A DNA stretch of 64,000 nucleotides from Pseudogymnoascus verrucosus (lineage: Eukaryota). The DNA lies in assembly GCA_001662655.1 (NCBI GenBank), contig KV460249.1, one strand, 5' to 3'. This document shows positions 13,458 through 63,395 of this stretch, in pieces. The notes under the pieces were generated by a model that ran no database searches, had not been told where the DNA came from, and was given only the letters and a program-made list of their open reading frames with translations. Every line of letters begins with the position of its first letter. Position 1 is the stretch's first letter. Position numbers and translations under genes: made by a program.

Positions 13458-14131
13458 TCCCATGCAGGGTCGCCTTCTGCACTCAGTATATTGCGGACAA
13501 CAGGCGTGTATTTGTAGAAACATACAGTTACGTATGATAGTTACCAAATTTTCTGATTTCGTTCTGTCCTTCAACCAAGGCTGCTCGTGTAATGTCGGAT
13601 CTTCGCGGCGGTGCTTGAGGGTTGGAAGGTTCAGATGGGAAGTGTTTATTGAAAAGATGGAGATGGGCGGCTAGGTGCAGCTGGATCGTTTTTGCGTGGG
13701 TCGGTGCAGGCTGGTGTTTGGTCTGGACGGCGGACGGCGTTCATAGGCTGCAGTTAGGATGGGAATACAAACTTGTCTCTTTGATTTATTGTATGTGTGA
13801 GTGCGTGCAGATCAAATGTTTGATACTTGTAAATTGTCTGTCGCATCTTCTTCACACCCAAAGAACCGATCTGAACAAATAAAAATTTCCTTTTAAGGTA
13901 GCTACTTTTCGATGAAGGCTACGCATATAAATACAACCCACCACCCCCGAAACACGCATATAGAAGCTGTCTACAACTTGCGTTCTTGTCTTTTTTAAAC
14001 CGCAATTCACAGCCGGGAAAACGCCCAAGCCAGACCGCAACGCCATCACCACTAACATATCCCACCCCAAACCCATCAAAATAACCTCCTCCCCCCACCC
14101 CTCCCCGCCTCCAAACAATCCATCACCTCTC

Positions 14132-15388
14132 CTACGCACCCTTCCCCATCCCCCTCCTCGCCTCCTCCTCCCTCAACCCCTGTCTCCTCTTCCACTCTCC
14201 CTTAATCTCCCCCGCCGCGCCAATCAGCTCCGCCTCTGTCACGCGATCCCTAATACTCTCAATAACACTCTCCACCGTACTACTATGATTCGCCTTATCC
14301 TTATCATCCCTAAACCGCATGAACCTCCATCTTCCACTATCATCCATCGAGCACTCCACCACGCGCTCATGCAGCGGCTCCCCCCTCGCCTTCAAATCCT
14401 CCCACTCCCCCTCTTCGAGATGAAGGGTGCCGTACCACTTCTCACCGCGGTCGCCGGTCCAGACGAAGAGTTTGACGACGGGGAGGGCGTCGTAGTCTGT
14501 CCAGCTCCCCGACTCGTCTTTGACGACCGCGAAATCGAGACGCATCAAGAAATCTACACTGTTTTCGTTCTCCGGCTTCCACTTCAGGATCCCGGGGTCA
14601 GTACCGTACCGATACGCTGCCCCGCGACATGTGAAGATTAACCCATCGTTTCCATGCGGTAGCCCGGGGAGCACGGCGCGGAACATCATCTCCAACCCGT
14701 AGGGGAGCTGCATATCTTTTAGTTGGACTTCAAACGGCATATGCGGCTTTTCCTCGGGAAACCTCCTCAGGAGCTCCTCATACGGCGCAAACACCCCGTC
14801 CTTGAAATACGCGAGTCGTTTATCCAATGTCCGGCTGATCAGGGGTTTGCGGTCGAGAGTCAGACAGTCGAAAACGAGGTAGGTGGCGCGGAGGCCGGTG
14901 GGGAGGTTGTCGAGGACGAGCTCGCCGTCGATGAGAGTGTTGGTGTGGAAGGAGGCAAAAGAAGGGTCGTCTTTGAGAGGGAAGTGGAGGTTGGGGATGT
15001 ACCAGTAGTCGTTGCGGCGGTCGATGAGGAAGTGGGCTTCGGAGCCGTTGGTGGGGTCCGCGGTGCAGTAGAGGAGGTAGCGTTGGCCGTCGGACTTTTC
15101 GCAGACGTAGTAACTACATTGCCACCACCATTAGCTGTTTATTCCCAGATCTAATTGTCCAGTGTGACCCTGGTTGAAAGCGGAGGGAGGGGGGTGAGGG
15201 GGGGGTACGCACTCTTGCTTCATCAACTCCCCAATATGCTTTCTCGAGAAGCTAACCGGTTGCGCCCCCGGAAACCCCTTCTGACTCCTCCCCAGCAGCC
15301 GCGCGACCTCTTCGCGCAGCGGGCGCGCGTCTTCATCGCTCAGCTTCTCGCCTGGGGCAGAGATGTCGATGAGTTTCGCCTGCGCCAT
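14132..15388 (-). CDS. CEG1: mRNA capping enzyme alpha subunit (guanylyltransferase)
   Basis: FPGAQPVSF, intron 15114-15212, catalytic YYVCEKSDG (KxDG), then DGLIFT, LKWKP and WRFMRFRDDK. Confidence 0.95.
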
Positions 15389-15878
15389 GGTTGCGCTTCC
15401 TTTGTCCTCTCTCTGTGGCGTGAGGTGCGTGTGGTTCGGTTTGGTGGTTTACTTGGACTTTAGAGGGTAGGATGGGCGTTTGGTTATATGGGTGTAGAGG
15501 CTTGGTGGAGGAGGGGTATATTATAGAGAGCTGGGGGGCGCATAGGTGAATTCGAGGACGAGGCAGCGAGTCGAGACCGATATTGCCCGATTGGGAGGCG
15601 GTGGAAGTTGAGATCGGGGGAAGTGTAATTCCGGTCCGGGCTACACCACTTATCAACTACCAGCCAGGTCAGCGCAGTCCATCCCTCTCACAAAAATCCA
15701 TCAAACTCTCTTTCATCATCAAAGGACTCCTTGAAAGTTTGCTGTCGGTCGAGTTTCCGTCCTCGTCAGACACCCAGTGAGAGGACGTTCATATCTGCCT
15801 CAGCTCACCCACTTGTTGCTCACTTGTGCTATTTCTATGTTCTGCTTCTTGTCTGTTGAGACAATTGTGCTTTGCTTC

Positions 15879-15978
15879 GTCAAACTTTACGCGCCTGTCC
15901 CGTACCATGTTTGTCCGGTTTGTTGTAGGCTACAGCAAAGCGGATGACATGGTGGGGGACAGGCGGGTGGAGTGTGAC
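15879..15978 (+). ncRNA. Candidate structured RNA / milRNA precursor hairpin, copy 1
   Basis: Hand-folded 100-nt stem-loop: GTCA/TGAC, ACTTTAC/GTGGAGT, CGCCTGTCCC/GGGACAGGCG, ACCATGT/ACATGGT, TCCG/CGGA, TTTGTTGTA/TACAGCAAA, loop GGC. Confidence 0.55.
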
Positions 15979-16223
15979 TGAGTGTAATTATTTCCACGGA
16001 AACGTTTGGGGTTATAGAGATAGCTATAAGTGGGAAAGTGCGTGGGTTTGGGTGGCTCTTTAGACCCTTCAAAGGACTGACTCCTTGGATCCTTCTTACC
16101 GATCGAGTTTTCGACCCCGTCAGACACCCGATGGAGGATGTAACCAGCCGTCCTATCTCGCTCATCCGCTGCCTTGTATGCCCTCTAATCCCCTCCTTCC
16201 ATCCGTCGAGATACTTGTGCTTC

Positions 16224-16323
16224 GACAAACTTGATTTGCATTTTCCACACCATGTTTGCCCGGTTTGTTGTAGGCTACAGCAAAGCGGATGACATGGTGG
16301 GGGGAAGGCAAGTCAAGTGTGAC
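16224..16323 (+). ncRNA. Candidate structured RNA / milRNA precursor hairpin, copy 2
   Basis: Same upper stem as copy 1. The lower stem differs in sequence but still pairs (ACTTGATTTGC/GCAAGTCAAGT; TTTTCC/GGGGAA). Confidence 0.55.
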
Positions 16324-16961
16324 CAAGTGTAATTATTTCACGGACGGTTTGGAAGAAGTTAGAGGTCGTACAGGTCGGCGAATAAAGAGGTTCGAGTAAC
16401 TGTTTATACCCTTCATTGGGCTGTCTGATGAAGACGAGGTTAAGTAGGAGGATGGCTGAGGGGTGATGGTGGGGATGGTATGTCCTCGTGCAAGTGATCT
16501 GAGGAACTGACATAGGTCATGATATCAAACTACTTCGAGATGAGAATGCGAACACATCCGCTGAGAACTGGGTTATCACCGCTGGCACTAGGCATTATGA
16601 CTTCTATTCGAGAGAGCAAGTTGTAGTTTTATCAAAGGAGCAGGCCAGTGCACATACGGAGAGGGCACGTATGGAGAGGCCGCACACATATGGAGACTAC
16701 ACTCCAAGCAATATCAAAATACTGAACCACCATATCCAGAAAACTCGTGAATGCTTGGACTATAGTACAATGACCAAATCCATCCCATGCCTATATGAAG
16801 CGGGTATCCCAGATCCCCTCCCCAACGCCGCAGTAAACCCCCCCCAAACACCCATCCATCCAGACCTCCCAGCAGCCTATCTCGAGTCCGTCAAATCCAA
16901 AAACTCCAGTACCCAGCACCCACCATCCACCCCCCACCCCCCCTCACCTCCCTCACCTCCC

Positions 16962-18496
<1,535 letters not shown>

Positions 18497-19432
18497 AGCA
18501 CCAATTAACATCTATTCCTCTTATACCATATCACAGCACCGCGGCGCATCTCCTTTCAATCCAGCCGCGGGTGGCTGGGGGAGCACATGCGCAGCTGGGA
18601 GGAAAGCACACACCTTTCTTCGTCTCCGCCATAATAATTGTATATTCCCAATAATCCTGCTCTCAAAAAATATAAACACCCCTCTTCGTGCTCACTTCAC
18701 AAACCCTCGTCCCTTTTTTGCGCTCCTGCGTCGATTGACGTCCTGACGTCGCGAGGCTGTGGCTCGCCTACCGGGGTAAGTAGTGTGGCTTTCGCAGTGC
18801 TGTGGCGGCGCCTTGGTGGCCGGTCGCGCGGTCGCAATGGACGAATTTGCGAACGACGCGCAAGGTACGCTGGGGTGTGAGGGATAGATGGATGGTATAT
18901 AGATGAATAGAAGTAGGAGTAAGAGATGGAGATGGGATGAGATGGATGGGGGGTATTTGTAGTGGTGGATGATTGATGGAATTGATTGATGATGATGTTG
19001 GGGTGGTGAGGTGCTGGAGCCGAGAGGGTGGTTGTGGTTAGTTTAGCCTCGTCGCGGACGGAGATGTAGTTTACGTGCACTTCACATCAGCAACCACGAC
19101 GTAGAGAGTAGATATGGAATAAATGATGTTTACGATATACTTACTACTCTAGATAATAAACCCCAATTCAGCAGTTGTATATACGAATTGCGCCGATCGC
19201 ACAAGCACACTCACTATTCACATTCATCACACAAAGAAACGTACCATACAGCAACATACATGCCATTATGAGTGACAGTACTTCAACCACTCTACCCCCC
19301 ATCTATCTATCTAATCCCACGCCCCCTCCCACCCGCAACAATGCCATCGCAAGAACTCCAAGATCAAACATCCCCCAAAAAAATGCACGTCTTTAAACAA
19401 CCCATCCACCCATCCGTATATCACACACCCCC

Positions 19433-22400
19433 CTACCTATCCCTCCTCCCCCCCCTCTCCTTCTTCCCCTTCCCCTCTCCCCCCTCCACCACAGCCCCCT
19501 TCTTAGTCGGCCTCCTCACCCTCGGCTGCTCCGAATGCAAATGGCCCAACTCCTCCACCGCCATCCCATTCCGCCACGCAAGACACCTATACGTCTCCCT
19601 CGCCTGCTGCAACACCTTCGTCTGTCTTGCCGAAACGCGTTTCCTCCCCTCATCCTGGCTCGGCTCCTCGCTCGCCGCGGGGACAGGGGCGAGGTACTCT
19701 CTGCGTGCGATCATGTGGGCTTTGATCTTGTCTTCGAATAGCTTGATTTCCTTCTGGAGTTTGAGTTCGTTGACGCCCCGAGGATCAAGCCAGGCGAGTA
19801 AGCCGTCCACACTCTCCGCGTCGTCGTAGTAGGCCCACTCCTTCGCATCGAACACGCTCGTCGCGCCCTCCTCTGCGCGTTTCCGCTCGGGCACGCTGAC
19901 GTCGAATTGCTTGCGGTACTCGGCTTGCCAGGCAGCAGGCATATCGATGTATCCCTCGCGCTCGAGCGGATCCGGGCCCTGGACCCAGAGACAGCCATTC
20001 GCGTACCCGGCATCGGCGGTAGAGCTATTAGGCAGACCGGCATATGGCATTCCGTTGCGCTCAAACCAGTAGTATCTATTCCAGAAGCGGTCCTTACCCA
20101 AGCAGCGTGTGCGCGGGCAGTCGGCTTCGCGGAGGTCGTTGTCGATGACCGCGATCTCTTCTTCGCACTGCTTGATCGTGTCCTGTTTCTTCTGGATGTC
20201 CTTGAGGAGCTTGGTGAACTGCTTTGATTGCTTTGGCATCTTGGCTGCGGCTTCGGCTTTCTCGCGGCGCTCTTGCTCTAATTCGCGCTTGCGTTGGCGC
20301 TCGGCAGCTCGGTCGTTGCCGCGGCGGAGGGAGCGGCCGAGATGGATGTCCTCGTCGGTATCGACTGTGGAGTCCTCTTCTACTTCGGGCTCTTCAGGGG
20401 TGGTCATCTTGGTGTCGCCGTTGACCTTGGCCTCTGGCTCCTCTAATGGAAGGGTGTTAGCAGGAAGGAGGACCTTCCTTTCCTCATTCAGCAGACGCAG
20501 CTCCTCCAGCCTATAATAAAGTTAGCAACTCATTAATATCAAGTCTCAAGTAAGTACTCACGCTATCTTCCGATCGCGCTGCCATTTGATCTTCTCCTTG
20601 CGGAAGCTCGTCATCTGCTCGCTACACTCCTCCATGAACCCACGAATAGCCTTCGTCTCCATAGTAAGCATGCAAATAATCTGCAAGATCTTAATCCTCA
20701 GGTTGATATCGATCCCCGCATACCTCAACCTCGCAGTCTCGACGCTAGGTTCCTCATCGACCGGCGCAAGGCTCTGCAGCAGCTCCTCGCACCGCTTCTC
20801 GAACCTCGGGAACTTCGCGAGTTGGTACAGCAACCCAACGACCACAATCTCCCATCCGCCATTCTTGAAATCGCGCTTCCGTAGCTTCTCTAGCCAATCC
20901 ACGTCCTCCAACATCTCATCGGCTAAGTGCAACTTCTTCTCCTCGGGAGTAGGACTGCGCTCCGCCTCGGCCTTCAGAGCTTCCGCCTCGAGCTTGGCTA
21001 GACTGCTGCGCGTGGCTCTTCCCTTGGGCTTCGGTTCCGGCTCTGGGGTCGGCGTCTGGATGGCGCTTTCGTCGTTTTCGTCGTCCTCGTCTTCGCTATC
21101 GCTATCACTCTCGGGGAGTTGGATCTGGACCTTCCCGCCGTCGCTCTCGGAATCGGCAAGTAGCTTCAAGGTCGCGCAGTGGATCTCCACAAAGAGCTCA
21201 CACTCGACATCCTCAGAGGTGATCTGCATTGCCTCGACGAAGTCGTCGAAGGTGAAAGAGTCGAGCTTGAAAATCTCGCAGTATACGTTCAAAGTGTCCC
21301 AGGTCTCCAACAGAGGTCCCATAGACTCCATGAGAATCCCATTATCCTTTGCCGGGTGGTCTTCGACAGGTACAGGGGTATTCTCTGAAAAGAACTTCAG
21401 CGGTGGTCGTTTAAGTATATCCTCCTTCCTCGGCGCAATCTGCAGATCCTCAATGGGGTATTTAATCGGAGGTGGCGGAGGCGGTTGTATCGGTAGCTGC
21501 TGCATAGGCGGGAACGAGAAAGTCGAGTTGTGGAAGTTGGTGTACTGTCCATTCGTAGGCGGGGTACCATTTCCATTGGGGTAAAATCCGTGCGCTTGGA
21601 ACTGGTGCTGTGGTAAGGCGCGGTGTAGCTGCTGAGCCGGCATCTGAGGCGTAGGGTTCAAGGTCATAGGCTGCTTGCTCTTCGCTAATTGTCCCTGTAG
21701 TTGCTTGCTCTTATGGCTCTTGGGCGCTGGTTTCAGTTCCGGTAGTTTCGGGTTGTTGCCGGGGAACACGCCAACCATCCCATCAAAGTCCGGACCATTC
21801 TTCTTCTGCTGATGTTTCTGTTTCCTCTCAGCCGCGTGGCTCTCGTATTTCAGGTGCTGGGGTACTCGAGTGTCGATATGATATGTCTCGGCGACGTCAG
21901 GCTTCACCAGCCATGGCGCACCCGTCCAAGCCTCCCTCGTAACCGTCTTCTTGATGAACGAGCGCAAGACCTGCTTCGTGAAGATTTTGCGATCGCGTGT
22001 AATATGGTCGTCGTCCACCACTGCCTCCTCAAACGGCCGATTGTCCAGGCTGACAAAGTATCTCGAGAAAGCAGGGCTAACCGTGCCATTGGGCAGCACC
22101 TTGTTGCCAAACCGCGTCTTGTCCCGCACCACACCCGTCAAGCGCTCGCCGCTGACCACATGTACCATTACCACCTCGCCGGGATAGTAATCCTTCTTAA
22201 ATTCGTCATATATGAGGTCCACCAGGTTATCAATTCGTGAGATCGTCTGGAACTGCACACGTCGGAGAATCGGGCCCTTGAGGGCAATAGGGAACGCCTG
22301 CTCGACCTCCTCCGCACCAGCCAGTTCGCTCTTTAGCGCCTCGAAGAAGTTGAGTCCCGAGTGTCCCGTTATTTGGCATATGAATCGGCGCTGCTTGTAG

Positions 22401-55870: not shown

Positions 55871-55954
55871 GAGTTCCAGTATTCGGACACCAGTGTCCAG
55901 TATTCGGACACCAGCGTCCAGTATTCGGACACCAGTGTCCGAATACTGGAACTC
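55871..55954. mobile_element. 84-bp miniature inverted-repeat element, Mutator-like TSD
   Basis: 20-bp perfect TIRs GAGTTCCAGTATTCGGACAC / GTGTCCGAATACTGGAACTC, with an internal 21-bp unit x3. Flanks are CTTGCGTAT and CTTCCGTAT (8/9 identical). Confidence 0.7.
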
Positions 55955-63331: not shown

Positions 63332-63395
63332 CTTAAGATGATATGGCATCGGCTATGGCATCGGATATGCATAGCCGATGCCATATCATCTTAAG
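63332..63395. repeat. Perfect 26-bp inverted repeat with 12-bp spacer, TTAA at both ends
   Basis: CTTAAGATGATATGGCATCGGCTATG (63332-63357) and its reverse complement (63370-63395). Confidence 0.85.

Follow-up and report, generated by a model that had tools for sequence, protein, structure and literature searches.

The window analysed here is a single stretch of 64 kb, and the element of interest lies between two genes that are both encoded on its minus strand, CEG1 (mRNA capping enzyme alpha) and SGF73 (SCA7 zinc-binding domain). An exon of CEG1 has 89% identity to a protein of a Pseudogymnoascus strain, the next named matches being at about 60%, which places the window in that genus or near it. 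The space from the SGF73 stop codon to the CEG1 promoter is filled by two long foldbacks, and relative to the start codon of CEG1, this foldback region is situated about 340-900 bp upstream. A plus-strand transcript of the foldbacks would therefore run divergently from CEG1 and toward SGF73. A low-complexity stretch covers 16919-17087. The features are as follows, in window coordinates:

14132-15388, minus strand: CEG1 (mRNA capping enzyme alpha), start codon at 15388; recognized by its open reading frames and by Pfam PF01331 and PF03919
about 15113-15212, minus strand: the intron of CEG1, marked by a spliced contig
15722-16094, plus strand: foldback unit 1, a predicted long hairpin with 65 long-range pairs around the tip and complementary outer arms (z 4.0)
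15725-15775, plus strand: upstream block D3, copy 1, in the outer 5' arm of the foldback; 76% identical to 16079-16129
15855-16000, plus strand: extended hairpin 1, -79.4 kcal/mol, z -9.5; basal stem G.U-paired on the plus strand only
15879-15978, plus strand: hairpin 1, the tip of foldback unit 1, with the GGC loop at 15928-15930; -71 kcal/mol, z -12.1
15915-15958, plus strand: identical 44-nt run, copy 1, comprising the loop, 13 nt of the 5' arm and 28 nt of the 3' arm, with the 23-mer inside at 15931-15953
16079-16129, plus strand: upstream block D3, copy 2, with predicted pairing to 16412-16439
16094-16449, plus strand: foldback unit 2, a predicted long hairpin with 76 outer and 60 inner pairs
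16200-16345, plus strand: extended hairpin 2, -68.6 kcal/mol, z -8.9; consensus structure
16224-16323, plus strand: hairpin 2, the tip of foldback unit 2; -52.4 kcal/mol, z -8.7
16260-16303, plus strand: identical 44-nt run, copy 2, with the 23-mer inside at 16276-16298
16412-16439, plus strand: partner of D3 in the outer 3' arm of unit 2, with 19 consecutive predicted pairs to 16119-16137
16962-18340, minus strand: 3' part of SGF73 (SCA7 zinc-binding domain), stop codon at 16962-16964; recognized by its open reading frames and by Pfam PF08313; the 5' end lies outside the mapped part
17335/17391, 17567/17627 and 18259/18340, minus strand: CT..AC joints of SGF73, from spliced contigs

The two hairpins belong to a larger tandem pair of units. 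The initial annotation had placed two copies 345 bp apart, and the repeat and inverted-repeat analyses agree with this spacing; Tandem Repeats Finder did not report a 345-bp period, as the copies are too diverged for this. Similarity between the copies is concentrated at the tip, where 54 of 57 positions are identical, including the unbroken run of 44 nt (15915-15958 and 16260-16303), while the lower stems are 62-74% identical, the D3 block 76%, the spacer 57% and the downstream part 54%. The 3' arm of 23 nt that had been described as invariant is present in both copies and occurs exactly twice in the window (chance expectation 0), neither strand of the 64 kb containing another match even if up to 3 mismatches are allowed, and the 26-nt core of the D3 block likewise has only two occurrences in the window. 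The reported single-base difference in the 5' arm is a T at 15914 that is a C in copy 2. As the identity extends over 44 nt that span the loop and both arms, the 23-mer is an arbitrary slice of a longer run, and its 5' U, which had been taken as a sign of a milRNA, carries no weight, because the ends of the 23-mer were chosen inside that run. Differences between the copies amount to 48 transitions versus 24 transversions upstream and 15 versus 13 downstream, plus indels. RIP is thus out as the source of the divergence, since transversions and indels are common and the changes are not transitions alone.

Both hairpins had initially been folded by hand, and computation recovers them. As plus-strand RNA, each folds into a single unbranched stem with a GGC loop, with minimum free energies of -71 kcal/mol (z -12.1) for hairpin 1 and -52.4 kcal/mol (z -8.7) for hairpin 2, and in neither case did any of 200 dinucleotide shuffles fold as well. 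The minus strand folds more weakly (-49.1 kcal/mol and z -8.0 for hairpin 1, -35.9 and z -5.7 for hairpin 2), and the z-scores of DNA folding are strong, too (-10.6 and -8.2). Interruptions of the stems do not exceed 1x1 mismatches, a 1-nt bulge and an 8x3 internal loop, and purine-purine 1x1 mismatches recur at the same stem positions in both copies. When 15400-16960 was scanned in 120-nt windows with a 30-nt step, z-scores of -3 or below were reached only in windows that overlap the two hairpins, on either strand. Other short palindromes are present in the 64-kb window.

The hairpins as such were confirmed by these folds, whereas the idea of a compact precursor of 100 nt was not, as a foldback of about 360 nt surrounds each hairpin, which forms its tip. 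Further paired sequence extends the stems to about 146 nt (extended hairpins in the list), and with 380 nt of context, each unit is predicted as one foldback, the two units abutting each other. The 381-nt stretch 16070-16450, which contains unit 2, folds with -165.6 kcal/mol (z -9.6). Complementarity of the outer left arms to the reverse complement of the outer right arms, judged by local alignment against 500 shuffles, all or nearly all of which were beaten, gave z 5.3 for unit 2 and z 4.0 for unit 1, and the D3 block aligned locally with its reverse-complement partner at 16412-16439 with z 4.9-5.3 over shuffles. In blastn, 16164-16383 aligned to its own inverse with 69% identity over 229 columns (E 4e-15). 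As the arm alignments and the self-inverted blastn match agree, the foldbacks are more than an artefact of the folding program. The element is real and strongly structured, and its tip is far better kept between the copies than the rest of the unit.

How the copies differ is informative with regard to the strand. The consensus of the two copies on the plus strand comprises 52 pairs with -59.9 kcal/mol. In 3 of them both partners have changed between the copies and in 6 only one partner has, yet all 9 altered pairs can still form, and none of the 52 is broken. The description of the lower stems as diverged yet paired therefore holds, with the reservation that this count compares two paralogous copies, not orthologues. 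Templated repair between the arms of a palindrome could mimic such two-sided changes, but it would not favour G.U. On the minus strand, the consensus shrinks to 32 pairs with -27.6 kcal/mol and a single G.U column. The plus-strand columns contain 13 G.U versus 1 A.C (one-sided binomial P 0.0009), or versus 2 A.C when a C.A that lies in the asymmetric loop of the second copy is counted, by eye, as well (P 0.004), in agreement with the initial observation that G.U pairs far outnumber A.C mismatches. If a DNA palindrome decayed neutrally, the two would be expected to be equally frequent. The excess points to an RNA read from the plus strand, and this would be so whether it arose by selection on the RNA or by a transcription-linked mutation bias on the plus strand as the non-template strand. 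In unit 2, only the inner 146 nt show the bias; the outer arms have 13 G.U on the plus and 11 on the minus strand.

Further evidence comes from relatives, represented by contigs of the coded sequencing runs X1, X2, X5 and X19. These contigs are strandless, their depth is a poor measure of abundance, and, none of the runs found being recorded as RNA, the RNA nature of X5 and X1 is deduced from spliced joints alone; the matching shares of the runs are all small except for X19 (0.29). X5 contains RNA of a related species, as its contigs skip the CEG1 intron (in a contig with 97 other letters and 6 gaps in 857) and the CT..AC intervals of SGF73 listed above. It also has a 518-nt contig, the listed pieces of which are 15739-15776 (38 nt, in the D3 block) and 16252-16439. 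The latter piece covers the tip, the 3' stem and the right arm up to the D3 partner, with 28 other letters and 5 gaps over 188 positions, and the contig has further joints, reaching at least 16684. Its 1-nt indels at 16323, 16336 and 16393 fall within the conserved stretch. In X1, SGF73 is again represented by spliced contigs, and 15746-15964 is covered by a contig of 233 nt that differs at 4 of 219 letters. As a weak measure, the depth of the hairpin contig in X5 is 1019.7, compared with 880.5 and 1065.1 for SGF73 contigs and 243.6 for CEG1, and in X1 it is 2.7 versus 2.0-3.4 for SGF73 contigs. On the left, the X5 contig ends at about 15718 and the X1 contig at about 15746; this closeness is given no weight, the X5 end being loose. 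As the hairpin-covering contigs come from runs with spliced CEG1 or SGF73, the region is transcribed in these two related fungi.

Contigs of three relatives (X19, X1 and X5) lie on the tip, and the one from X19 is informative with regard to the number of units. A 1891-nt contig of this run follows 15086-15964 and continues at 16339-17313, and the 30 letters in between match 16309-16338 with one difference. Since the contig joins the left flank of unit 1 to the right flank of unit 2, X19 has one unit and not two. The duplication claimed for the locus thus stands for this genome, but a pair is not the general state, as the only relative with a bridging contig has a single unit. The one difference in the 30 letters compared is an A-to-G change at a paired position, which would give a U.G pair on the plus strand if the 5' partner is unchanged. 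With a depth of 15.8, as compared to 13-24 for neighbouring contigs, the tip-crossing contig has an ordinary depth, which disfavours a dispersed repeat. In another X19 contig (depth 23), 15608 is joined to 16739 without any listed piece on the hairpins. The more distant relative that it represents may lack the element or carry it in a form that is no longer recognised, but this is weak evidence, as one side of the joint has only 23 letters. A recent tandem duplication is out, as the spacers are 57% alike while the one-unit relative is about 95-97% alike in the flanks. The difference in unit number can be due either to a loss in relatives by recombination across the identical tip, or to the gain of an old paralogue here. 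From X2, a run that is probably DNA, two 151-nt contigs are identical to 16337-16487 and 16507-16657; no weight is given to these, nor to the uncovered parts of the stretch in X1, X2 and X5.

Does the element belong to a known class of RNA? A check against Rfam, which the initial annotation had proposed, recovered no known family: over the hairpins, no family reached its threshold, and matches with E < 0.05 were to microRNA-precursor models only, all far below threshold. The best one, MIR2950 (RF03335), scored 31.6 and 27.4 bits versus a gathering score of 76, and other families scored lower. The precursors of these families share the hairpin shape of about 100 nt, but they are plant and animal families, and the sub-threshold matches reflect shape only. 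C/D box snoRNAs, for which a C box and a D box 60-130 nt apart and closed by a terminal stem were demanded, were rejected as well: box pairs at 16425-16510 (plus strand) and 15722-15669 (minus strand) have terminal stems of at most 4 bp, and Rfam E-values are 0.75-9. There are no template words of a telomerase RNA in 15450-16960, and a tRNA-linked origin finds no tRNA gene in the 64-kb window. Protein coding was rejected because all six frames contain stops or short ORFs only and frame-breaking indels occur in X5; short ORFs have letters in common between the copies because the DNA itself is duplicated. A scan for bacterial-type promoters and terminators is uninformative for a fungus. Two core words, one of 20 nt from the 3' arm and one of 21 nt spanning the loop, each had 0 matches in a metagenome collection. 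Literature searches found no paper in which 16-mers of the two arms occur, whether written as DNA or as RNA and whichever strand is taken, and no small-RNA study of the genus Pseudogymnoascus under the terms small RNA, milRNA, Dicer and Argonaute; PMC12427802 deals with bat microRNAs only.

The element probably represents a non-coding RNA gene that has escaped annotation and could give rise to small RNAs. As its best reading, we tentatively propose a plus-strand hairpin-RNA gene that feeds Dicer. A plus-strand transcript would begin near the D3 block, divergently from the CEG1 promoter; in relatives it would form a single long imperfect hairpin, and here two of them. The working part would be the tip, which over about 45 bp is near-perfect and constrained in sequence, and from which a Dicer-like enzyme would release small RNAs, as from the precursors of milRNAs or hairpin siRNAs. 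What the data show are the structure, the constraint on the tip, the strand asymmetry of its pairing and the occurrence of the region in RNA contigs of relatives, and we infer from there the strand of the transcript, the processing by Dicer, any mature small RNA and any target. A role as Dicer substrate is the single most likely mechanism, which still leaves it short of an even chance, and the label microRNA-like refers to nothing but the shape. Several observations do not fit easily: a precursor as abundant as the neighbouring mRNA is unexpected under efficient cutting by Dicer, typical milRNA precursors are far shorter than this foldback with its roughly 360 nt, and a G.U strand bias is missing from the outer arms of unit 2. 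Whether the element is more specifically a small-RNA gene under purifying selection across this Leotiomycete genus, with the invariant 44-nt tip and compensatory stems, that grew from a long inverted repeat and forms a two-hairpin cluster here, is rather doubtful; if true, very few others among the microRNA-like genes of fungi would show true evolutionary constraint as it does.

Which other explanations could account for these observations? Three close rivals, to which we give equal probability, and one more distant alternative are to be considered. The same evidence of structure, constraint and strand asymmetry would also be expected from a structured plus-strand RNA with a role outside RNAi, such as a signal for Rnt1-type RNase III cleavage or for termination on the divergent transcript, or a platform for dsRNA-binding proteins. 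The mRNA-like depth in X5 would be more readily expected of a stable RNA than of one that is diced quickly, as far as depth can tell, and the purine-purine mismatches at matching positions suggest a specific shape and not a mere duplex. However, the signal of Rnt1 is an AGNN tetraloop and the loop here is a GGC triloop, and no processed RNA such as a snoRNA was found beside the hairpins, the C/D box scan and Rfam being at chance level. This explanation appears unlikely. Alternatively, the region could be the distal part of a long 3'UTR of SGF73 on the minus strand, the foldback being a structured or simply tolerated UTR element. SGF73 ends at 16962 and runs toward the hairpins, the hairpin contig in X5 has a depth like SGF73 and 4x that of CEG1 (the depths in X1 agree with those of SGF73 as well, depth being a weak measure in both runs), the low-complexity stretch could explain why the contigs are unjoined, and the neighbouring left ends in X5 and X1 would be seen with a common transcript end. 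Yet selection for a minus-strand structure is disfavoured, because the 13 G.U columns become A.C mismatches on that strand, with the loss of pairs and folding energy described above. The UTR would need to be about 1.2 kb, which is long for a compact fungal genome; AATAAA and ATTAAA are absent from the minus strand in 15450-16960, the only AATAAA being on the plus strand at 16381 (a weak point, as fungal signals are loose), and the left end of the X5 contig has no starting T run. We regard this explanation as improbable.

A third group of explanations does without a function of the RNA. Each unit is an inverted repeat over its whole length of about 360 nt, and it could thus be an old foldback or MITE-like element, or a palindromic duplication, that is decaying and passively transcribed, with the identity of the tip maintained by gene conversion between copies and arms. 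The genus includes one genome reported to contain thousands of DNA transposons (PMC5751038), the symmetric G.U counts in the outer arms of unit 2 are those that neutral decay predicts, other short palindromes occur in the window, and the number of units varies between relatives. Such a relic would nevertheless be expected to look different: the centre is best kept and the termini worst, which is the reverse of transposon terminal repeats, and the strong plus-strand G.U bias in the tip is unexpected from neutral decay. Dispersed copies with target-site duplications, which would indicate a foldback or MITE, were not seen in the 64-kb window, where only two copies exist, both at one locus; no such duplication was seen by eye in the flanks at 16094 and 16449 or at the ends of the 100-nt and 146-nt forms. 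The ordinary depth of the tip-crossing X19 contig, the same position of the region in contigs of three relatives and the absence of matches to the two core words in the metagenome collection also argue against a relic, and we give it little probability. Finally, a palindromic protein-binding site or a cruciform in the SGF73/CEG1 control region would agree with the position upstream of the CEG1 start codon and with the DNA fold z-scores, but G.T over A.C brings nothing to a DNA palindrome and the 13:1 bias would be left unexplained, binding sites do not need stems of 45-60 bp, and the region occurs in RNA contigs of relatives. An element acting as DNA is therefore very improbable.

How would a Dicer-fed hairpin-RNA gene compare with known systems? 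Fungal miRNAs and milRNAs are expected to derive from a stem-loop without secondary stems and without loops of more than 20 unpaired bases, as described in PMC9757828, and further traits given there and in PMC3547838 are a dominant small RNA from one arm, a 5' U preference, dependence on Dicer-like proteins and/or QDE-2, at least 80% of the reads on one strand, an intergenic position outside transposons and Rfam structural RNAs, a hairpin kept in at least two genomes, and a precursor transcribed from the hairpin-forming strand. The stems found here are unbranched, with the 8x3 internal loop as the largest interruption, and they lie in intergenic sequence between CEG1 and SGF73 that reaches no Rfam threshold and has no other copies in the window. 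The asymmetry of the pairing favours the plus strand as the one transcribed. Shape and intergenic non-Rfam context would be the only features in common with fungal milRNAs. With the milR-1 to milR-4 type of Neurospora crassa, the element shares the intergenic imperfect stem-loop without secondary stems and with one invariant arm, and possibly the transcription beside a protein-coding gene (PMC9757828, PMC3547838). The Neurospora precursors are short, however, whereas the foldback here has about 360 nt and is known from sequence alone. The major Neurospora loci also rely on Pol III, while here there is no tRNA gene in the window and, by eye, no run of at least 4 T right after either hairpin.

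Loci for hpRNAs and young plant MIRNA genes arise from inverted duplications, and they resemble the element in that a long, decaying inverted repeat would be transcribed as one RNA, in which a short part is constrained and the sequence of the other arm parts drifts. The difference is that no source or target gene similar to the arms was found in the window. MITEs and foldback elements are similar with respect to the inverted repeat of a few hundred nucleotides over the whole length, the terminal inverted repeats and the variable copy number, but differ in that here no target-site duplication and no dispersed copies were seen in the window, the centre is kept instead of the ends, the X19 contig is at single-copy depth, and the position is constant in relatives.

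In a re-analysis of 1727 reported fungal microRNA-like loci from 41 species, the main text of which does not name the genus Pseudogymnoascus, under half of the loci passed basic standards and 25 were conserved between species (PMC9757828). As constraint, compensatory change, strand-specific pairing and transcription in relatives coincide at the locus described here, while few fungal loci are conserved, it lends itself well to the question of whether small-RNA loci that are gene-like and under selection exist in fungi. Even without processing by Dicer, it would be an unannotated conserved RNA structure beside two housekeeping genes. It also suggests a possible route by which such a locus may originate, namely from a long inverted repeat to a constrained tip, with a copy number that varies between close relatives.

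Directly 3′ of each 100-nt hairpin (hairpin 1, 15879-15978, and hairpin 2, 16224-16323, both on the + strand), the motif GTAATTATTTC is kept, at 15983-15993 and 16328-16338, and it is also found in the printed letters of the contig from the close relative (run X19). Via G.U pairs, this motif makes up the 3′ side of the predicted basal stem of each extended hairpin. Further downstream, 58 nt 3′ of hairpin 2, the + strand carries an AATAAA hexamer (16381-16386), which is the sole copy in the 1.5-kb intergenic space between CEG1 and SGF73 when both strands are scanned, and which lies within a stretch that is conserved in a related species (run X5). As for run X19, the comparison across 14000-18500 revealed two contigs at 14550-14935 that differ in their letters as well as in depth (17.9 versus 22.9), and this run therefore contains at least two related genomes.

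Other repeats occur in the window. A perfect inverted repeat at 63332-63395, whose 26-bp arms flank a 12-nt spacer, folds as DNA with -33 kcal/mol (z -10.1), but in contrast to hairpins 1 and 2 it has no G.T pairs. At 55871-55954, a unit of about 21 nt occurs three times in direct orientation and then once inverted, and together these copies form a 28-bp hairpin with 93% complementarity (z -9.2). A low-complexity, C-rich array at 16919-17087, with CCCTCACCT and related units, sits where SGF73 encodes its C-terminal part, and the opposite strand gives G/E/W-rich codons there; this array probably breaks short-read assemblies at this site.

One further probable gene was recognized by a domain match:

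19433-20521, ORF on the - strand that encodes a WSD (DDT-associated) domain

This ORF is probably part of a gene for a chromatin-remodelling factor.
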